Program-made: the position numbers and the translations under genes
Notes under the pieces: model-generated
What the model was told of the DNA's origin: nothing
The model's database searches: none
Seen by the model: only the letters and a program-made list of their open reading frames with translations
NCBI GenBank assembly: GCA_030619865.1
Contig: JAUXAP010000001.1
Span: forward strand, 2,214-66,213
Direction of reading: 5' to 3'
Origin: Dehalococcoidia bacterium
GTDB taxonomy: Bacteria; Chloroflexota; Dehalococcoidia; Dehalococcoidales; JAUXAP01
DNA: 64,000 nucleotides
Shown: piece after piece, positions 16,216 through 35,987 of the stretch
Layout: every line of letters begins with the position of its first letter
Position numbering within the stretch: the stretch's first letter is position 1

Positions 16216-18045
16216 ATGACATCTTATCATATTGATTTCGAGCCAGTGGGTCGGCGAGGAAAATGCCCGGCTGATAAGTGTCTTTTGGATTGCGCACATC
16301 AACTCGGTGTGGGTATTCTCAGCATGTGTGGTGGCCACGGAACCTGCCACTCGTGCAAGGTACAGGTTCTAAGTGGAACTGTCTCGGAGCCAACACCCCA
16401 TGAACAGGAGGCTCTCTCGCCTCAGGAACTGAAGAATGGCTGGCGTCTGGCCTGCCAGACGTATCCCACCAGTGATTGCAAATTGAGTGTGCCGCCCCAA
16501 TCGATGACCACGCCACAACGAATTCAGGTGGAGGGGTTAGAGGTCACTGTTGCTCCCGACCCACCGGTTCGTGCCTACCAGCTTCAGTTACCAGTCTCAT
16601 CTTTATCAGATCCACGGGCCGATAGCGAGCGCCTGCTGGAAACACTGGAGCAACAGCACCAGGTACACTGCAGCATTATTGACATTGATGTCCTGCGGAA
16701 TCTCTCGCCCCAGCTACGATCTTGGAACTGGCAAGCTCAGGCTTCAGTACGTGACAACGAAGTGGTAGCCCTTAGCCCCTGGTCCAGTCACAAACTGGGG
16801 CTAGCCATTGACCTAGGGACTACCAAAATAGCCGGTTATCTTGTTGACCTAGAGAATGGCCAGACGTTTGCCGCCAAGGGAATTATGAACCCGCAGGTCA
16901 GTTATGGGGAAGATATCATCAGCCGCATTACTAGTGCCACAAAATCACCAGTTGAGGCAGCACAAATACAACAGCTTACGGTAACTGCCATCAACCAGCT
17001 AGGTGTTGACCTGTGTGGTGAGGTTAATGCTAAGCCAGAGGAAATCGTTGAGGCAGTGGTGGTAGGCAACACAGCCATGCACCACCTCTTGCTGCGTCTA
17101 CCAGTGGAGCAGCTGGGTCTCTCCCCCTATGTGCCCGCAATTCGTGAGGCCTTGGATATTAAAGCCCGTGATATTGGGCTGCATATAGCATCGGGGGCCT
17201 ACGTACATTTGCTGCCCATCGTAGCTGGCTTTGTGGGAGCTGACCACGTAGCTATGCTGTTAGCTACGGAAGCTTGGCAAGCTGAGGGGCTAACAGTGGC
17301 AATAGACATTGGCACCAACACCGAGGTGAGCCTGGTAAGCGATGGCAAGGTGACCAGCGTCTCCTGCGCTTCTGGCCCTGCTTTTGAGGGAGGGCATATC
17401 AAGTGTGGCATGCGAGCTGCCAGCGGCGCTATAGAACGATTGCTACTAGTAGATGACCAGGTAGAATACCAGACTGTTGATGGAACCCCTCCGGTTGGGC
17501 TTTGTGGCTCAGGCATCCTGGATGCTATGGCCCAGCTCTATCTGGCCGGAGTCATCGATAAGGACGGCAGAATGAAAGATAATCATCCCCGAATGCGTAC
17601 TCGCCAAAAACAACTCGAATTTGTTCTGGTCAGCAAGGACGAACAAGATGGACACCCAGCTATTGTTATCACTCAGCAGGACATCCGAGAACTGCAACTG
17701 GCTAAGGCAGCTATTCGCACCGGTATCCAAGTGCTCCTGGAAACGAACGGCTGCTCTGAAGAAGAAATCAAACAGGTGATAATTGCTGGAGCCTTTGGCA
17801 GCTACATTAATGTGTCCAGTGCGGTAACTATCGGGATGTTGCCATCGCTAGCTCTGGATTGTTTCAGACAGGTAGGAAATGCCGCCGGCATGGGAGCCAA
17901 GCTGGCCCTTGTCTCACGTAGCAAGCGAGCCGAAGCACAGACAGTAGCCCGTCAGGTCGGCTATATCGAATTGGCCACTGCCCCTAATTTTATGCAGACC
18001 TTTGTCCAGGCAACACATATAGGACGCTACAATAGAGGAGGTTAA
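16216..18045 (+). CDS. Reductive activator of corrinoid-dependent enzymes (RACE): 2Fe-2S ferredoxin domain plus ASKHA ATPase (DUF4445)
   Basis: 609 aa. The N-terminal cysteine cluster is CGGHGTCHSCKV...LACQ. The large C-terminal domain has actin-like ATPase motifs (LAIDLGTTKIAGYL, VAIDIGTNTEV, GLCGSGILD). Confidence 0.9.
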   Translation: MTSYHIDFEPVGRRGKCPADKCLLDCAHQLGVGILSMCGGHGTCHSCKVQVLSGTVSEPTPHEQEALSPQELKNGWRLACQTYPTSDCKLSVPPQSMTTPQRIQVEGLEVTVAPDPPVRAYQLQLPVSSLSDPRADSERLLETLEQQHQVHCSIIDIDVLRNLSPQLRSWNWQAQASVRDNEVVALSPWSSHKLGLAIDLGTTKIAGYLVDLENGQTFAAKGIMNPQVSYGEDIISRITSATKSPVEAAQIQQLTVTAINQLGVDLCGEVNAKPEEIVEAVVVGNTAMHHLLLRLPVEQLGLSPYVPAIREALDIKARDIGLHIASGAYVHLLPIVAGFVGADHVAMLLATEAWQAEGLTVAIDIGTNTEVSLVSDGKVTSVSCASGPAFEGGHIKCGMRAASGAIERLLLVDDQVEYQTVDGTPPVGLCGSGILDAMAQLYLAGVIDKDGRMKDNHPRMRTRQKQLEFVLVSKDEQDGHPAIVITQQDIRELQLAKAAIRTGIQVLLETNGCSEEEIKQVIIAGAFGSYINVSSAVTIGMLPSLALDCFRQVGNAAGMGAKLALVSRSKRAEAQTVARQVGYIELATAPNFMQTFVQATHIGRYNRGG

Positions 18046-29522: not shown

Positions 29523-29553
29523 GAGATTGCCTCGCCTTCGGCTCGCAATGACA
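29523..29553 (+). repeat. Solo half-copy of the palindromic repeat family (GAGATTGC...CTCGCAATGACA end)
   Basis: GAGATTGCCTCGCCTTCGGCTCGCAATGACA. Its reverse complement matches 32681-32711 at 29 of 31 positions. A partial echo GGCTGGCAATGACC lies at 29562-29575. Confidence 0.75.
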
Positions 29554-29569: not shown

Positions 29570-29683
29570 ATGACCAATAAAAGGAACACAGTTCTTTACA
29601 CTGGTATTACTAATGAACTAGGAAGAAGGGGCTACGAGCATAAGGGAAAAAGAGTATTGACAAATAAATATCCTGTGGTATGA
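29570..29683 (+). pseudogene. Truncated GIY-YIG nuclease-family gene remnant
   Basis: My translation is MTNKRNTVLYTGITNELGRRGYEHKGKRVLTNKYPVV*. It matches the central YIG-Arg-Glu block of small GIY-YIG (UPF0213-like) proteins (KRNGTLY[IT]GVTN[DN]LxRRxxEHK...FTKKY). It lacks the N-terminal GIY strand and the C-terminal half. Confidence 0.55.
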
Positions 29684-29684
29684 T
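29657..29684 (+). promoter_or_regulatory. Candidate promoter P1 (TTGACA-N16-TATGAT with extended -10 TGG)
   Basis: TTGACA at 29657-29662 and TATGAT at 29679-29684. It matches P2 at 24 of 29 positions. Confidence 0.45.
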
Positions 29685-29839: not shown

Positions 29840-29867
29840 TTGACAAATAGATTTCTTATGGTATAAT
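29840..29867 (+). promoter_or_regulatory. Candidate promoter P2 (TTGACA-N16-TATAAT with extended -10 TGG) for the surface-protein gene
   Basis: TTGACA at 29840-29845 and TATAAT at 29862-29867, preceded by TGG. It predicts a 5' UTR of about 235 nt before ATG 30108. Confidence 0.55.
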
Positions 29868-30107
29868 ACCTTGCTACACAGTGTTATGTGTGGTATAAAT
29901 ACACTGAAAAGGGGGTGATGCTATGGTAAGAGCCTGAAAGGTCGGCACTTACCTTTATTTATTGGCCGTCCTGGAAGGGAAAGAGTTATTAAACTCAACA
30001 ACAGAAGTTAAAAAATCTTTCCTCTATCAAAGAAAGAATATGAGGTTTCATGTTCTTATTTGTGGAGATAAAGAAATATCCTAATAAGGAGGATAAATTA
30101 AAGGTCG

Positions 30108-32576
30108 ATGAAAAAGAAATTTTCTAGAATACTAGGGGTAGTGGCAACCATCGCCTTGTTGGCCAGCCTGACCTTGTTTGCAGCTCCAGTAAGTGCGATT
30201 AGCCAGGCTACGGTTACCATAACGGATGCTGATGATGACATCAGTATGCCAAATGCTGACTATGCTATCTTCTTCACCATATATGAGGAGCTTGGTTATA
30301 CTGATGCGGATACTTTTGATAAGATCGTTATAACCTTTCCTGAAGACACGGTCATAGCTGCACCTACCGCTACAATTGGTGCATCACCAGGCTGGATTGG
30401 TGGGTCGTGGGATGATGCAACGACAACTAATGTAACCTTTGATTTCGATGCTACCGACCTGACAATTAGCGCCGAGCTGGGTGCAGGCGATGAGATTGGG
30501 GAAAATGCTAGCGTACGGATTGAGATTACCGCTGGTATTACCAATCCCACTACTGAAGGCGACTATACCCTGGACATAGAAACCTTTGCGGAGGATGCGG
30601 CTGTAGATACCTCTATAGAGGATCTGGCAACGTCAGAGACCTACGAAATAGAAGCTCCAACGGTTGACCCACTTCCAGGCATAGTTGAGGTCTACAATCC
30701 AAGCGATACACTCATGGCCGCCTTTACTGGAGACGACGCCGTCATTGATGCCATAACTGCTGCCACTGATGCGGACTGGGTGATAAAGCTTGGCCCGGGC
30801 ACATACTACGACACCGACGACGATTTCAACACTGCCGTTGCTGGTGTGACTTTTGAAGCTGCCGGTGACGTCACCTGGGAGGGCGCCGCGCTCGTTGATG
30901 TTGACGACATAACCATTGATGGCATCATCTTTGATGGTGACCTAACCGTTACCGGTGACGATTTCATCCTTCAGAACGCCGTTATTGATGACGCCGGGAC
31001 ACTGATTATCAATGCCGGTGGCACTGACGCCACGATAGATACCGTCACCTTTAACGTAGAGGATGATGTCGGCATTGAGGTGGATGAGGATGATACCGTA
31101 ATCACTGACTGTACCTTTATCATGGAGGAAAACGGTAGAGGCATCAGCGTTGAAGATGGCGGCACTGATACCGATGTGGAAGATAGCACCTTCACCGGAG
31201 ACGCAGGGGAGGGAGTCGGTATTGAGGTTCTCAATGTCGCTTCAAACCTGGAGGTTGAAGGTAGCACCTTCGACGACCTGGCCACGGCATTTGATATCAA
31301 TGGTGGCACAGCCGACATCACCGGCAACACCATTCAGAACTCGGAGGGTCCAGCCATTGATATTGACGGTGCTGCTTTGGTTACCATTCACAACAACACC
31401 ATCACCGGTAACGACAACTCGGTTATTATCGACATTGCTGACGATACTAATGCTGCCACTACGCTCGCTGACGACGTCTTCATGATGTTCAACACCATTA
31501 CCGACAATGTCGGTGACGAAGATGGCGTGCTGGTGGACAACAACGATGCGGCATCAACGGACGACATTCCCTTCGTCTGTGTCAACAACTGGTGGGGTAA
31601 TGCCGATGGTCCGCCCGAGGGTGAGGACGCCTTTGCAGGCGAAGTGACCTTCGAGCCGTACCTGCCTGGTCCTATAGCAACTTCAGCTATTGAGACCGCT
31701 GTAGCCTTTAACACTCCTGCCGATTTCGAGACTGCAACCAGCGTGATTGTGGAATCAACAGCTGGCGCTGGTGTCATGGATATCGTTGGCGCCGCGCAGT
31801 ATACAGCCAACCCAGTAGCTGCCATTGACAACGCAACTGGCTTCTGGGATGTAAGCGTCATTGATCCTGATGCTGCCATCACTGAAATTACCATCAGGAT
31901 CTACACCACTGTCACCGAGGATACTGAGGTCTGGGTCTGGGGTGAGGCTAGAGGCGAGTGGCTAGAAGCCGTTGACGCGGCAGGTGACCCTAACTATACT
32001 CCCAACCTGTTCGCCGGCTTTATTGCCATCGCGGTTACCGATCTCAGCGTTCCCACCATTGACGACTTAGCGGCACTGCCATTTGTCGTGATTGAGGAGC
32101 CTGCTCTGGCAACTGCGGTAGACATCACCGCTCCAACCATTGGTGCTGTGGACATCTCGGTTACTCCCACCCTTGCCTGGACAGCGGTGGCCGATGCTAC
32201 CTACGAGGTCCAGATAGCCCAGGATGCCACATTCGCCATCTTAGACGAAGCGGCTACCTCACCGACTAATGCCTATATAGTGACGACTGCCCTTGCTGAA
32301 GGCCAGAGCTACTACTGGAGGGTGAGAGCAGTTACCGATGCCGGTGCTGGTGCTTGGGCGACAGGCGTCTTCACTACCGCGACACCAGAACCAGAAGCAG
32401 AACCACCGATAGTCATTGAAGAAGCTCCACCAGCTCCTGAGATAACGGTGACGATACCAGCTCCAACAGTAACACAAGCCATAGATCCAGGATTACTGTG
32501 GGCGATTATCGGAGTTGGTGCGGTACTGGTTATTTCCCTGATTGTCCTGATTGTCAGAACAAGACGGGCAGTATAA
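30108..32576 (+). CDS. Large acidic cell-surface protein: signal peptide, parallel beta-helix repeats, FN3-like domain, Pro-rich linker, C-terminal TM anchor
   Basis: 822 aa. Signal peptide ...LFAAPVSA. It is very D/T/A-rich. Right-handed beta-helix-type repeats are present (ITDCTFIMEENGRGISVEDG..., IEVLNVASNLEVEGSTF, ITGNTIQNSEGPAIDIDGAALVTIHNNTITGN). The FN3-like module has YYWRVRA. The tail is DPGLLWAIIGVGAVLVISLIVLIVRTRRAV. SD AAGGAGG. Confidence 0.85.
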   Translation: MKKKFSRILGVVATIALLASLTLFAAPVSAISQATVTITDADDDISMPNADYAIFFTIYEELGYTDADTFDKIVITFPEDTVIAAPTATIGASPGWIGGSWDDATTTNVTFDFDATDLTISAELGAGDEIGENASVRIEITAGITNPTTEGDYTLDIETFAEDAAVDTSIEDLATSETYEIEAPTVDPLPGIVEVYNPSDTLMAAFTGDDAVIDAITAATDADWVIKLGPGTYYDTDDDFNTAVAGVTFEAAGDVTWEGAALVDVDDITIDGIIFDGDLTVTGDDFILQNAVIDDAGTLIINAGGTDATIDTVTFNVEDDVGIEVDEDDTVITDCTFIMEENGRGISVEDGGTDTDVEDSTFTGDAGEGVGIEVLNVASNLEVEGSTFDDLATAFDINGGTADITGNTIQNSEGPAIDIDGAALVTIHNNTITGNDNSVIIDIADDTNAATTLADDVFMMFNTITDNVGDEDGVLVDNNDAASTDDIPFVCVNNWWGNADGPPEGEDAFAGEVTFEPYLPGPIATSAIETAVAFNTPADFETATSVIVESTAGAGVMDIVGAAQYTANPVAAIDNATGFWDVSVIDPDAAITEITIRIYTTVTEDTEVWVWGEARGEWLEAVDAAGDPNYTPNLFAGFIAIAVTDLSVPTIDDLAALPFVVIEEPALATAVDITAPTIGAVDISVTPTLAWTAVADATYEVQIAQDATFAILDEAATSPTNAYIVTTALAEGQSYYWRVRAVTDAGAGAWATGVFTTATPEPEAEPPIVIEEAPPAPEITVTIPAPTVTQAIDPGLLWAIIGVGAVLVISLIVLIVRTRRAV

Positions 32577-32607
32577 CCAACCGCCTGGTTCGGTAAAACC
32601 GGATACA

Positions 32608-32642
32608 AGAGAGGTCGCTTAAAGCGACCTCTCTTCTTTATT
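32608..32642 (+). terminator. Intrinsic terminator after the first surface-protein gene
   Basis: AGAGAGGTCGC (32608-32618), loop TTAAA, GCGACCTCTCT (32624-32634), followed by TCTTTATT. Confidence 0.75.
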
Positions 32643-32680
32643 ATCTCTTAGTCAGCCGAAAAGTTCTGGCAATTCTTTTG

Positions 32681-32787
32681 TGTCATTGCAAGCCGAAGGC
32701 GAGGCAATCCGACCCTCAAGACCCCGAACCATTCCAGATTCTTCGTCACGTTCCTTCACTTCGTTCAGGACAAGCCTCAGAATGACA
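32681..32787. repeat. MITE-like palindromic element, copy 1 (ends TGTCATTGCAAG ... CCTCAGAATGACA)
   Basis: The left arm TGTCATTGCAAGCCGAAGGCGAGGCAATCC and a degenerate right arm AGATTCTTCGTCACG...CCTCAGAATGACA form an imperfect long hairpin. No coding capacity beyond a spurious ORF. Confidence 0.65.
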
Positions 32788-32794
32788 GGGGCTG

Positions 32795-32870
32795 TGTCAT
32801 TGCGAGGAGCGTTAGCGACGAAGCAATCCCATACACGCTTTGAGATTGCTTCATTACATTCGCAATGACA
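32795..32870. repeat. MITE-like palindromic element, copy 2 (TGTCATTGCGAGG ... TTCGCAATGACA)
   Basis: TGTCATTGCGAGGAGCGTTAGCGACGAAGCAATCC, a 13-nt centre, then GAGATTGCTTCATTACATTCGCAATGACA. The terminal inverted repeats are TGTCATTGCGA/TCGCAATGACA. Confidence 0.75.
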
Positions 32871-32945
32871 GACACGGGGTTGTTAAACACTCTCTAAAGA
32901 CCAACAAAATTGACTTCCTATTAGAGCAAAGGTAAAATTCGCCAT

Positions 32946-35900
32946 GTGGCGAAGATAAAAATTCCCTTCGTATCTTTGACGCTGATTTTGGGGCTGAGCC
33001 TACTCGGTTTCACCAACCTCACCACTCCAGCGAATGCCACCACAAATACGATAGAATGGTCCGGGGTTAATATCCCCACCGAGGGCGAGCCGGGCAACTG
33101 GGTGCTAGCTAGCGGCTCGGACATCCGGCACCTGACCACGACTATTGATGGCACCCTCTACGGCTACGTCAACCCCTCAGGAACAAGCTATACACTATTC
33201 AAGTCTACAGATGGCGGCTATAGCTGGTCATCTACCGGGGAGGTCACGGACGCCATAGTTGCTCTAGCCACTGCTACTGATGATGCCGATATTGTTTGCT
33301 ATGCCACTGCGGCTGATGTCTGGCAATCCACTGATGCCGGTAGTAACTTTAGCCCGCTGCCAACAAATCCGGGTGGGGCTGGCAGCGACAATATTGAAAT
33401 CACCAGCATTGATGCTGCCCGACTGGATAGCAATAGTGTTATCATCATCGGCACCAGAGACACCGATGATTCACAATACGGCGGTGTCTATATCCTGGAC
33501 GAGAACGAGCCGCCCGCCGGTTGGATAAACACCAATATAGGCAACTATGATGTCTGCGCTGTAGCCTGCTCGCCAAACTTTACCGCTAACCGGCAACTCA
33601 TAGCCGTGGTCACTGACGAGCAAGATACCTTTGTTACCACCAAAATTGGTGATACTGGCTGGGGCGAGGTTATCGGTGATGCTACCATTGCCGGGCTGGC
33701 ACCAAGAGCGGCGGCTATTGCCTTCCCTGACGACTACGATGCCACCACTGAGGACTATGTCCTGTTTATGGCTATTGACACTGGCAGTGATAACGGTGAT
33801 GTCTATAAGATTGAGGGGGTGTCAGCACCGGGCAGCTCAGTAGCTACTGACCTTAATATTGGTTCGGCTTATGGCCTGAGCTATGTTGATGTTACCGGGC
33901 TGGCTGCCACCGGTAATGCCATCACTGCTAATCTACTGGCTGGTGCCACCAGTAGCGCCCAGGTCTACATCAGTATTGATGGCGGGAACAACTGGACAAG
34001 GAGCGCTAAAGAGCCAACAGGTCAGACAAAGACCGAGGTGGTTATGGCTTCTGATTTCACTAGCTCCGGCACAGCCTACGCAGCTACCAGTGGTACCGAG
34101 AGTGCTTTTTCCCGCACTACAGATGGCGGTACTGCCTGGAACCAGGTCAGCTTAATTGACACTACAATCGGGATTGGTAACATTCTTGACCTGGCAATAT
34201 CTCCTGACTACAGCCAGAATAAGACCTTATTTATGCTCACCTTCGGCGGAAAGCACAGCTTGTGGCGAAGCTTAAGTGGCGGCGAAAAATGGGAAAGGGT
34301 GTTTACCAGCACCTTGCCTAATGTTGACAGTATTAAGCTGGTTGAGCTTTCCCCTCAATATGGTAATGGCAGTCAGGTAGTCTTCTTAGCCGGGGCTAGT
34401 AATGGCAATCCAGCAATTTGGAAATCAACAGATAACGGACAAATCTTCACCCTCCGAAGTGCCCCGTTTTCCATTGACACATGGGCAGTAGCTGATGATA
34501 CTACCCTGTTTATCGGCAGCTATGATGGCAATAATGGACTGGTCTACCGCACTACTGATAGCGGTGTATCTTACTCTACCGGGGCAACAGCGGGTACTAA
34601 TCCACTAAACTCCATTGTCTTATCACCTGACCATGAGCAGGATGAGACCATTCTGATAGGTAATACCAACGGCTGGGTCTACTGGTCTAGTAATGATGGC
34701 ACCTCATTTGAGCCACTAGGCCAGCAATTACCTGAAGGACTATCACCTACCGACATAAGCAACATAAGCGTTGCCTTTGACCCCAAATTTGATAGCAATA
34801 AAACTGCCTACGCCGCCAGCGAGGCCAAAGCAACAACAGAAAATAAAGACCGTATCTACCGTTTCATCATTGACAAGAGTAATACCTGGGAAAGCATAGA
34901 TAGTACCCTGCCCACCGATAGTATGCTCAACCAACTGATGGTATCAACTGATGGCATATTATATGCAGCTAACTTTATGACTGATGGTGGTATGGAGCGC
35001 TGCCTTAATCCCACATATTCACTGGGTCCGACATTTGAGACAGTAACCCATGGGCTTGATGATGGGTCTACCTTAACCGGACTATGGCTGTGCAACAACA
35101 GATTATGGTCAATTGATACCCAAAATACCGGGTTGATGACCTATATCGATAGTTTAACCCAGAGGGTTGTCCTGGTTTCACCAGCTAATAAGGGAGCAGG
35201 CATAGGTACTGTTATTGATTCCAGTGTTAGAGATGTTAAGCTTGACTGGGAGGTATTAGAGGAAGCTACCAAGTATGAGTGGCAATTTAACGATGAGCGT
35301 GACTTCTCCACTATTCCTACCGAATTTGAGGACGAGACTAAAGCCAGCTCAGCCCGGTTACCAGCTCTCGAGCCAGTTACCAAATACTACTGGCGGGTTA
35401 GAGCCATCAAACCAGTGTTAAGTCCATGGTCAGCCAGGTGGTCATTCACTACCGCTCTTGCTTCCCCTGAGCTTTTGAGCCCTGAGGCTGGTGTAGATGG
35501 GGTGCCGCTAGAACCAGTATTTCAGTGGAGCACTGTAGCTGGGGCAGATAGCTATGAGCTATTAGTGTCTGCTGATGCTTCTTTTGCTAATCCTTTAATC
35601 GCAAAGGTTGGTGTAACCGCCACAGCCTGGCAAAGTGATATAAGCCTAGACCCCGATGCTACCTACTACTGGAAGGTCAGAGCTAATGGGTCTAATAGTT
35701 ATAGTGCCTGGAGTGCTGTTAGTGCCTTCACCACCGAGTCACTACCAGCCCCAGAGCCGTCACTACCGGCTGAGTCATCACCGTCAGAGCCATCACCACA
35801 GGCTGAGTCACCGCCAACACTAGAGCCACCAACGTCTGAGTCATCGCCACCGGCTGATCTACCACCCTCACCACCCCTCATCCAGCTAACCATCCCCGAT

Positions 35901-35987
35901 TGGGCAATATATTCAGGCCTTGCCCTACTACTGACCATAGCTCTACTGTTAATTACCCTGCTGGTGCTGAGAATGAGGCGGTTCTAA
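32946..35987 (+). CDS. Large BNR/Asp-box repeat (beta-propeller) cell-surface protein with two FN3-like domains, P/S/E-rich linker and C-terminal TM anchor; putative S-layer component
   Basis: 1013 aa. GTG start with an N-terminal signal/TM. It has at least 8 Asp-box-like motifs (STDGGYSWS, STDAGSNFS, SIDGGNNWT, TTDGGTAWN, SLSGGEKWE, STDNGQIFT, TTDSGVSYS, SNDGTSFE). Two FN3-like modules carry YYWRVRA and YYWKVRA. The tail is IPDWAIYSGLALLLTIALLLITLLVLRMRRF. Confidence 0.85.
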   Translation: MAKIKIPFVSLTLILGLSLLGFTNLTTPANATTNTIEWSGVNIPTEGEPGNWVLASGSDIRHLTTTIDGTLYGYVNPSGTSYTLFKSTDGGYSWSSTGEVTDAIVALATATDDADIVCYATAADVWQSTDAGSNFSPLPTNPGGAGSDNIEITSIDAARLDSNSVIIIGTRDTDDSQYGGVYILDENEPPAGWINTNIGNYDVCAVACSPNFTANRQLIAVVTDEQDTFVTTKIGDTGWGEVIGDATIAGLAPRAAAIAFPDDYDATTEDYVLFMAIDTGSDNGDVYKIEGVSAPGSSVATDLNIGSAYGLSYVDVTGLAATGNAITANLLAGATSSAQVYISIDGGNNWTRSAKEPTGQTKTEVVMASDFTSSGTAYAATSGTESAFSRTTDGGTAWNQVSLIDTTIGIGNILDLAISPDYSQNKTLFMLTFGGKHSLWRSLSGGEKWERVFTSTLPNVDSIKLVELSPQYGNGSQVVFLAGASNGNPAIWKSTDNGQIFTLRSAPFSIDTWAVADDTTLFIGSYDGNNGLVYRTTDSGVSYSTGATAGTNPLNSIVLSPDHEQDETILIGNTNGWVYWSSNDGTSFEPLGQQLPEGLSPTDISNISVAFDPKFDSNKTAYAASEAKATTENKDRIYRFIIDKSNTWESIDSTLPTDSMLNQLMVSTDGILYAANFMTDGGMERCLNPTYSLGPTFETVTHGLDDGSTLTGLWLCNNRLWSIDTQNTGLMTYIDSLTQRVVLVSPANKGAGIGTVIDSSVRDVKLDWEVLEEATKYEWQFNDERDFSTIPTEFEDETKASSARLPALEPVTKYYWRVRAIKPVLSPWSARWSFTTALASPELLSPEAGVDGVPLEPVFQWSTVAGADSYELLVSADASFANPLIAKVGVTATAWQSDISLDPDATYYWKVRANGSNSYSAWSAVSAFTTESLPAPEPSLPAESSPSEPSPQAESPPTLEPPTSESSPPADLPPSPPLIQLTIPDWAIYSGLALLLTIALLLITLLVLRMRRF

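Follow-up and report, generated by a model that had tools for sequence, protein, structure and literature searches.

A tandem gene pair for putative S-layer-type proteins in Dehalococcoidales: a conserved double propeller beside a variable partner of the DET1407 class

The gene pair and its closest described relatives

In the wall-less cells of Sulfolobales, adjacent genes encode the coat proteins SlaA and SlaB, one component being variable and the other conserved and membrane-anchored; only SlaB is held in the membrane, and it carries SlaA. The tandem sap-eag genes of Bacillus anthracis encode Sap and EA1, which are expressed one after the other from promoters of their own and display different outer domains on a common anchoring module, the SLH domains that bind wall polysaccharide. 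In the slpA cassette of Clostridioides difficile, a hypervariable exposed part is exchanged by recombination within conserved flanks, and one precursor is cleaved into two subunits of a coat on a Gram-positive wall. Here we describe two adjacent genes, A and B (Table 1), in a 64,000-nucleotide (nt) stretch of DNA (the window) from a Dehalococcoidia bacterium (assembly GCA_030619865.1, contig JAUXAP010000001.1, positions 2,214 to 66,213 of the forward strand). We examined homology, gene order, phylogeny, sequence variability, predicted folds and the absence of wall genes, and we consider it reasonably probable that the locus encodes the two main membrane-anchored S-layer-type coat proteins of the cell, B being a conserved core and A a swappable, exposed partner. 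The genome is an 823-kb metagenome-assembled genome (MAG) of the order Dehalococcoidales, 58% complete, and the homologues of A and B found elsewhere are labelled Dehalococcoidales, Dehalococcoidia or Chloroflexota.

The coat of the wall-less Dehalococcoidales has so far been known from one proposed protein, DET1407 of Dehalococcoides mccartyi. DET1407, the name given to it in PMC5102406, is reported there to be one of the most abundant proteins, and a published model arranges it in an S-layer lattice of beta-propellers (bioRxiv 10.1101/2024.05.28.596244). Its identity was fixed by a 1001-amino-acid (aa) open reading frame (ORF) in genome G120 that is exactly UniRef100_Q3Z6N3, the "BNR/Asp-box [S-layer]" protein of D. 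mccartyi 195 (PMC6646388); the S-layer peptide AGIIDVPATADDATK of the same study was absent from three representative D. mccartyi genomes. In the literature we found no description of a tandem arrangement, of two protein classes or of a beta-helix variant. Peptidoglycan synthesis was reported to be lost before the radiation of the Dehalococcoidales (PMC10284905). Murein synthesis genes, which a sequence-only reading of the window had named as a check, were searched for in the genome of the window and 30 relatives (31 genomes), with bacterial genomes as controls. murG above the cut-off and a penicillin-binding protein (PBP) transpeptidase gene were each found in 0/31 genomes, and all bacterial controls were positive. 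Because murG and PBP genes were not found and peptidoglycan loss has been reported, a protein coat is plausible and a membrane-anchored coat is the envelope to be expected.

The two proteins were originally described from the letters of the window as products of consecutive genes, 822 and 1013 aa long, secreted, biased toward D, T, A and S, and finishing with the same order of FN3-like domain(s), Pro-rich linker, transmembrane (TM) helix and Arg cluster, and all of this was borne out. Protein A contains 14.1% A, 12.9% T, 11.6% D, 0.6% K and 1.2% R (K+R 1.8%) and one His, and has a net charge of -134 and an isoelectric point (pI) of 4.05; protein B contains 10.8% T, 10.6% S, 9.4% A and 7.2% D, with a pI of 4.14. 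A has one copy of the FN3-like motif YYWRVRA...FTT (residue 735) and B has two (814 and 907), and the Arg clusters read RTRRAV in A and RMRRF in B. A and B can thus be read, as proposed, as secreted and anchored envelope proteins that do not resemble enzymes, in a lineage lacking genes for peptidoglycan. Predicted secretion, predicted attachment to the envelope and the lack of any other wall, which are among the general marks of an S-layer protein, are found in both.

The locus departs from each of the systems above. Compared with SlaA/SlaB, A and B each have a TM anchor and a promoter-like site of their own, and they show neither the same folds nor any relation in sequence. In contrast to Sap/EA1, two distinct classes of TM helix do the anchoring. 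As in slpA, A shows mosaic and discordant domains, with 3-7 times the synonymous divergence (dS) of B; unlike slpA, the locus has two genes and belongs to a wall-less monoderm. The beta-helix fold that we predict for A serves as an S-layer building block elsewhere, for example in RsaA of Caulobacter (bioRxiv 10.1101/2024.05.28.596244). RsaA is lipopolysaccharide-anchored and leaves the cell by type I export, whereas A is predicted to be Sec-exported and TM-anchored, and no sequence relation between A and RsaA appeared in profile and fold searches.

The counterpart of DET1407

B and DET1407 could be aligned collinearly, at merely 26-32% identity. We built a maximum-likelihood tree of 43 sequences with approximate likelihood-ratio (SH-aLRT) supports. 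The B orthologues, including a 963-aa protein of G083, a Dehalogenimonas-like genome from the family of D. mccartyi, formed a tight clade (SH-aLRT 100) with DET1407 outside. DET1407 was joined with the rho-adjacent second paralogues of Dehalogenimonas-like genomes (SH-aLRT 99) and with propeller proteins encoded directly 5' of B in other genomes (SH-aLRT 98), a gene position that we call slot 1. A clade of B plus DET1407 was rejected by the approximately unbiased (AU) test (log-likelihood difference, delta lnL, 49; p 2.5e-5). With DET1407 as the BLAST query, the B orthologues scored 116-218 bits, compared with 287 bits for the slot-1 protein UP_L070.

Gene order gives the same division. The order rho-[slot 1]-B-MBL-fold gene-hrcA-grpE-dnaK recurs (G028, G106 and L009), and that of D. 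mccartyi is rho-DET1407-three inserted genes-MBL-hrcA. In Dehalogenimonas-like genomes a DET1407-like paralogue comes after rho, with the B orthologue elsewhere in the genome (G083) or absent (G103, best B match 1e-25). No true B orthologue was found in D. mccartyi, where the best B match (E 1e-15 to 1e-20) is consistent with DET1407 itself. The window reads A-B-MBL-fold gene-hrcA, and rho is not located 5' of A here.

The termini also sort into two classes. Slot-1 proteins have a common signal peptide, MKxKxSKILGVxLT...PVSA, and a common TM tail, ...TPxYIWxIIGVGAxLxIAVIVLIVRTRRV, whatever the ectodomain between them, and the tail is nearly the same across the order. B differs at both ends, starting with MAKxK... 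and finishing with ...PDWxIYLxGALLLTIVLLLIT...RR. Local alignments of the first 30 and of the last 32 residues scored on average 61 and 97 between A and DET1407-like proteins (three D. mccartyi proteins and three Dehalogenimonas-like paralogues), 64 and 100 between A and slot-1 propellers, and 28 and 39 between A and B. Residues 664-822 of A matched DET1407 with 42% identity (E 2.4e-17). Thus A carries the signal peptide, the C-terminal module and the locus position of the slot-1 class; the BNR/Asp-box propeller of the slot-1 propellers is missing from it, and its ectodomain consists of an immunoglobulin-like (Ig-like) domain, a beta-helix and a beta-sandwich.

Since the tree, the AU test, the gene order and the termini all separate DET1407 from B, we concluded from these sequence comparisons that the proposed S-layer protein of D. 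mccartyi corresponds to A and not to B, the ectodomain of A having been replaced. The sequence-only reading had been right to relate the pair to the DET1407 type (Q3Z6N3), but it had taken B for that type and A for an undescribed extra. This assignment of roles is not supported by the B clade, the AU test, the position of DET1407 directly 3' of rho like slot-1 genes, or the signal peptide and the TM tail that A shares with DET1407. DET1407 resembles A in its signal peptide, tail, slot-1 position and the FN3-like stalk before the linker, and resembles B in its architecture of signal peptide, propellers, two FN3-like domains, linker and TM helix. It has propellers where A has the three other domains, and B belongs to a separate, far more conserved clade with its own types of signal peptide and tail. 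In D. mccartyi 195 the stretch from DET1407 to the MBL-fold gene includes (L058, 5487-7554) genes for an RNase_H_2-family protein and for a caspase-like (Peptidase_C14) protein that has an InlB-type repeat; genes of these two kinds are not found in the window locus.

Next, we inspected the region 5' of B in 40 sampled genomes of the order. A divergent propeller paralogue with the slot-1 anchor was present in 19/40 (in three of these it lies 1.5-2 kb away and is not adjacent), the slot-1 anchor on another, unrecognised ectodomain in 2/40 (L095 and L100), and a truncated anchor at the contig end in 2/40; about 14 of the 40 have no anchored gene directly upstream. The tandem pair of giant anchored proteins is therefore not peculiar to this genome. 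Full-length beta-helix proteins of the A type were found in 11/151 genomes from at least seven families, and are located directly 5' of B in the window, G019, G028, G014, G126, G112, G122, L065 and L066. Families f33 and f38 hold both slot-1 types, which indicates that the ectodomain type was switched within families. In genome G146, a single 2.3-Mb contig that is 93% complete, the order is A-type-MBL-hrcA (L121, G146:C1:1249000-1265000), and in G108 the A-type gene is followed by one unrelated ORF, MBL and hrcA (L122, G108:C27:14000-27000). Neither locus has a B gene; genome-wide, B found nothing in G146 and no more than a weak match (4e-28) in G108. These two loci indicate that a beta-helix slot-1 protein can be the sole giant anchored protein, like DET1407 in D. 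mccartyi.

The two unrecognised slot-1 genes, a 1106-aa ORF of G127 (L095) and a 1120-aa ORF of G136 (L100), carry the class anchor on ectodomains that were hit by neither the beta-helix nor the propeller profiles, possibly a third ectodomain type. MAG contigs often break just 5' of B (L067, L090-L093, L098, L103 and L104), an effect on assembly to be expected from strain-level hypervariability of slot 1.

Strain variation, folds and expression signals

Variation at the locus was examined by comparing the window with the close strains L065 and L066. Nucleotide identity among the three is 89-99% for B and the flanking genes and 81-95% for the promoter and leader of A, and across residues ~40-705 of A it goes down to 30-70%. 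The A proteins are 52-66% identical, compared with 85-94% for B. Resemblance shifts along the gene in a mosaic: at 30910-31332 the window is like L066, and at 30089-30909 and 31633-32076 it is L065 that resembles L066. The dS of A is 0.40-0.84 versus 0.07-0.23 for B, and the ratio of nonsynonymous to synonymous divergence (dN/dS) is 0.4-0.6 for A and ~0.3 for B; the neighboring MBL-fold gene has the same dS and dN/dS as B. The high dS of A points to old allele lineages and not merely to fast amino acid change. In the Ig-like domain the window is 29% identical to L065 or L066, and these two are 63% identical to each other, relations opposite to those of the genome background, with which the domain trees are discordant. 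The allele of L108, a fourth one, likewise shows its largest differences in the N-terminal domain. In four more genome pairs slot-1 and B proteins are 48/63, 48/61, 32/65 and 41/56% identical, respectively, the slot-1 protein always being the more divergent, and of the proteins encoded in its neighborhood in D. mccartyi none is as divergent as DET1407 (74-76% versus 81-100% for the neighbors). We concluded that A is a recombining, strain-specific cassette exchanged between old allele lineages inside conserved flanks.

The AlphaFold2 (AF2) model of A has a mean predicted local distance difference test (pLDDT) score of 89.6 and contains a right-handed beta-helix at ~190-480, a disordered linker and a helix at 794-821. 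Pfam matched Beta_helix (2e-12), NosD (2.6e-9) and one FN3-like domain, and the parallel beta-helix noticed at the outset was thus confirmed. In a PDB profile search the helix matched AlgE epimerases best (2.4e-8), followed by PL6 alginate lyases, pectinesterase and NosD. Foldseek against the PDB and viral libraries brought up only generic types, at E values no better than 1e-5: beta-helix enzymes (GH87, K1 capsule lyase), phage tailspikes and adhesin domains of the Ig-like kind, the N-terminal domain matching CNA, pilin and BslA-type sandwiches. These matches suggest a different role, in which A is a surface carbohydrate-active enzyme or binder of the CASH/NosD type, or an adhesin for cells or particles, and merely sits beside the gene of the actual coat protein, B; the same genome also encodes another A-like protein, which ends in a different tail and fits such a role as well. 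Among 53 family members, however, the conserved helix positions (aa 186-515) are an Asn ladder and Gly, and D271 (83%) is the sole charged column conserved at 80% or more, so that no conserved catalytic set of acid, base or His like that of AlgE epimerase, PL6 lyase or pectinesterase was found on the helix. The best-conserved regions of the family are the signal peptide (entropy 0.74) and the TM tail (entropy 0.61). With a single His in the protein and no conserved charged helix residue other than D271, it is very unlikely on this sequence evidence that A is an enzyme with a fixed active site. The alleles are also too divergent for a fixed substrate site, the signal peptide, tail and locus position are those of DET1407, and in G146 an A-type protein is the sole giant anchored protein found. 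We therefore regard a role for A beside the real coat as unlikely; an adhesin role is compatible with A as a coat protein.

The FN3-like domain with the motif YYWRVRA...W...FTT is widespread. Searching a library of 1.84 billion proteins with the C-terminal 157 aa of A gave 14,155 representative matches, dominated by this domain and hence uninformative on the tail. It is often found as an array of 10-40 copies, in proteins 2,000-5,600 aa long.

For B, the AF2 model has a pLDDT of 82.4, and residues ~35-745 are nearly all beta-strand. Pfam matched Sortilin-Vps10 (5.7e-16), BNR and two FN3-like domains. At least eight Asp boxes had been counted in B; five are strict S-x-D-x-G-x-x-[WFY] motifs (87, 128, 343, 494 and 581), two start with T (391 and 536), and eight is reached if a degenerate one at 442 is included. 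The best Foldseek matches are tandem seven-bladed GH74 propellers, including xyloglucanases (E 3e-17, 14-16% identity, TM scores 0.25-0.35), and the fold also matches the non-enzymatic double propellers PorZ, a surface part, and BT4663, a sensor. The GH74 matches, a weak NCBIfam BNR glycosylhydrolase match and the invariant residues D315, D393 and D735 are what one would expect if B were a surface-anchored glycoside hydrolase of the GH74 or sialidase type and not a structural protein. We consider this very improbable. The NCBIfam score (68 bits) is far under its cut-off of 175. The sialidase FRIP motif, [FY]R[IV]P, is found in 0/47 family members; PF13088 (sialidase/GH33) scores 18.7 bits against a cut-off of 31.4, and the best folds are tandem seven-bladed propellers and not a single six-bladed one. 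B is also near-universal in a wall-less order, has a stalked membrane anchor and is kin to a protein class to which the abundant DET1407 belongs. B-like proteins were detected in 112/151 sampled genomes of the order and in 66/82 high-quality genomes, with full-length matches at 33-65% identity and the remainder being fragments or weaker, paralogue-level matches. We concluded that B is probably structural and not an enzyme, with less certainty than for A.

The promoter-like sites and other expression signals are listed in Table 1. The hexamers of the proximal A promoter are identical in the window, L065, L066 and L108, with two differing positions in the spacer. The predicted A leader folds better than all of 200 shuffled sequences (z = -4.07); long stabilising leaders are typical of S-layer genes. 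Since the -10 box of B ends 7 nt 5' of its start codon, the mRNA of B, a probably highly expressed gene, is predicted to be leaderless. Among the 40 sampled B-orthologue loci (L068-L107), in which GTG starts are common, 27 match the pattern TTGAC-17/18-TARAAT-6..9 nt-ATG/GTG "MAK", and the layout is visible by eye in the window, L065 and L066. A strong A promoter, a terminator of its own and separate expression of the two genes had been predicted earlier, and conserved signals of each kind are present, as consensus matches and not as mapped ends.

Such signals raise the question of whether A and B are alternative coats used at different times or under different conditions, like Sap/EA1. The genes are adjacent, have the same anchoring design and are separated by a hairpin; their promoter-like sites differ in kind (long leader versus leaderless); and either class can stand alone, slot 1 in D. 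mccartyi and G146, and B at the loci without an anchored upstream gene. However, the pair has been kept together in many lineages over long times, the class-specific TM tails suggest distinct roles, and no regulator or switch element was found. We think that alternation is improbable and that simultaneous use of B as core and A as exposed partner is the better explanation.

Table 1. Genes, domains and expression signals of the A-B locus (window coordinates)
Feature	Position	Strand	Remarks
Distal promoter-like site of A	29657..29684	+	TTGACA-16-TATGAT, TG-extended; 11/12; kept in L065; consensus match only
Proximal sigma-70-type promoter of A (putative)	29840..29867	+	TTGACA-16-TATAAT with TG; 12/12 consensus
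Predicted structured 5' leader of A	29875..30107	+	~235 nt, ends in AAGGAGG ribosome-binding site; putative start
Gene A	30108..32576	+	822 aa, ATG start; slot-1 (DET1407-class) envelope protein with beta-helix ectodomain
A signal peptide	30108..30197	+	aa 1-30, MKKKFSRILGVVATIALLASL...PVSA; class signature common to DET1407
A N-terminal Ig-like beta-sandwich	30198..30662	+	aa 31-185 (AF2: 35-182); most variable domain
A right-handed parallel beta-helix	30663..31652	+	aa 186-515; Pfam, AF2 (~190-480)
A second beta-sandwich	31653..32102	+	aa 516-665 (AF2: 523-663)
A FN3-like stalk domain	32103..32387	+	aa 666-760 (AF2: 673-757); YYWRVRA...FTT
A Pro/Glu-rich linker and TM helix/RTRRAV tail	32388..32573	+	linker aa 761-793 (AF2: 758-793), tail 794-822
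Terminator-like hairpin after A	32607..32635	+	13-bp stem, weak T tract; kept in L065, L066
Promoter-like site of B	32910..32938	+	TTGACT-17-TAAAAT; -10 box ends 7 nt before GTG
Gene B	32946..35987	+	1013 aa, GTG start; conserved double-propeller envelope protein
B ectodomain, two tandem Asp-box beta-propellers	33048..35180	+	aa ~35-745; AF2, Foldseek, Asp boxes
B two FN3-like domains	35181..35750	+	aa 746-935; Pfam, motifs, AF2
B Pro/Ser-rich linker and TM helix/RMRRF tail	35751..35984	+	linker aa 936-984 (AF2: 935-984, disordered), tail 985-1013 (AF2 helix: 985-1012); signature PDWxIY...

Rfam gave no match on either upstream region or on the intergenic region, a single RT-2 hit at E 0.45 being chance. 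A riboswitch has been mentioned upstream of DET1407 (PMC5102406), and Rfam gave no credible match there either. A 30-nt leader motif was found at two loci only in a metagenome scan, too few for covariation. A short ORF in the A leader was considered and rejected: the 39-aa ORF of L065 is not conserved, its fifth codon being a stop in the window. Much of the A-B spacer (32681-32870) is taken up by palindromic repeats of GTCATTGCGAGG...GCGACGAAGCAATC type, and a half copy is located 5' of A (29523-29553). Their copy number varies among close strains, and most of the L065 spacer is without them. Between the MBL-fold gene and hrcA, L065 carries an rve-family transposase and several small ORFs (16240-17301), and at that place L066 and L067 have small accessory genes of other kinds (SocA_Panacea, DUF5678).

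We also considered processing of the A and B tails by an archaeosortase or exosortase as a general mechanism and rejected it. None of the NCBIfam CTERM models matched either tail at E <=0.1, and Exosortase_EpsH was found in 5/31 relatives and 0/13 high-quality genomes; D. mccartyi has the same tail and lacks it. The genome of the window has one archaeosortase-like gene (C22:31316-32236, minus strand; TIGR04178 32 bits, nearest ArtC) and a 681-aa paralogue of A (C27:21230-23272, plus strand) with an A-like Ig domain, a NosD-like helix and a PEP/PEF-CTERM-like tail, PVPEL-TM-RRRK. From its tail this paralogue, rather than A or B, is the likely substrate of the archaeosortase-like gene product. 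Its N-terminal domain is 47-49% identical in aa to the L108 and L065 alleles versus 38% to A of the window, and ~76% identical in nt to L108, L065 and L066, which hints at domain exchange between the paralogue and A alleles. As for N-glycosylation, STT3 is absent from the genome of the window and D. mccartyi and present in 7/31 relatives, and sequons are not enriched in A and B (5 and 10 found, ~5 and ~10 expected).

A putative two-protein coat and its meaning

The proposed coat would work as follows. Both proteins would be exported via their signal peptides; the C-terminal TM helix with its positive-inside Arg cluster would hold each in the cytoplasmic membrane, and the Pro-rich linker and FN3-like stalk domain(s) would raise the ectodomain above it. 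B would be the conserved core, a tandem Asp-box propeller with its own promoter that is found in about three quarters of the order and evolves at a housekeeping-like rate. Slot 1, in the presumed ancestral layout between rho and B, would encode proteins with one type of signal peptide and TM tail, their ectodomain usually being a divergent propeller that in A has been swapped. DET1407 is a slot-1 protein, and D. mccartyi would have lost B. The A cassette would be flanked by promoter and leader on the 5' side and by anchor, terminator and B on the 3' side. A would be the more exposed of the two, possibly under diversifying pressure by phages or other surface-recognising agents, and the two proteins may be abundant, contact each other and form a lattice.

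Several points weigh against this proposal. Some relatives carry the slot-1 anchor on several of their proteins, G142 on as many as six, so it may be a general surface-display module and not a mark of an S-layer. The high abundance supposed for A and B is carried over from the D. mccartyi literature, with the strong promoter-like sites as the other pointer to it. The tree has long, compositionally odd branches, and the clade rejected by the AU test was named after the tree had been seen. With the genome of the window 58% complete, more paralogues could be absent from the assembly. Finally, the hypervariability indicates diversifying exchange of A and not an outermost position. A broader joint reading goes further: most Dehalococcoidales would have a two-protein envelope with B as a basal propeller layer and slot 1 as a swappable "serotype" gene that changes even its fold and keeps a nearly invariant signal peptide and TM tail, the constancy of the tail (...GVGAVLxIAVIVLIVRTRRV) over otherwise dissimilar ectodomains would reflect dedicated recognition (pairing with the B TM helix, or a sorting or processing machine), and phage receptor use would drive the turnover. 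We offer this reading in full only as a tentative possibility, more doubtful than the two-protein coat itself.

Aquifers and sediments harbor abundant Dehalococcoidales, among them the organohalide respirers used in bioremediation. Our results suggest that D. mccartyi is a reduced case and that most of the order has a second, far more conserved coat protein, B. They also suggest that DET1407 belongs to a variable class, of which the outer domain is exchangeable even for a different fold. S-layer peptides used as strain markers (PMC6646388) would then target the variable class. The analysis names a protein to be sought by cryo-electron tomography and proteomics of organisms with Dehalogenimonas-type genomes carrying both classes, and the locus may provide a natural system for the assembly and diversification of a membrane-anchored bacterial coat.

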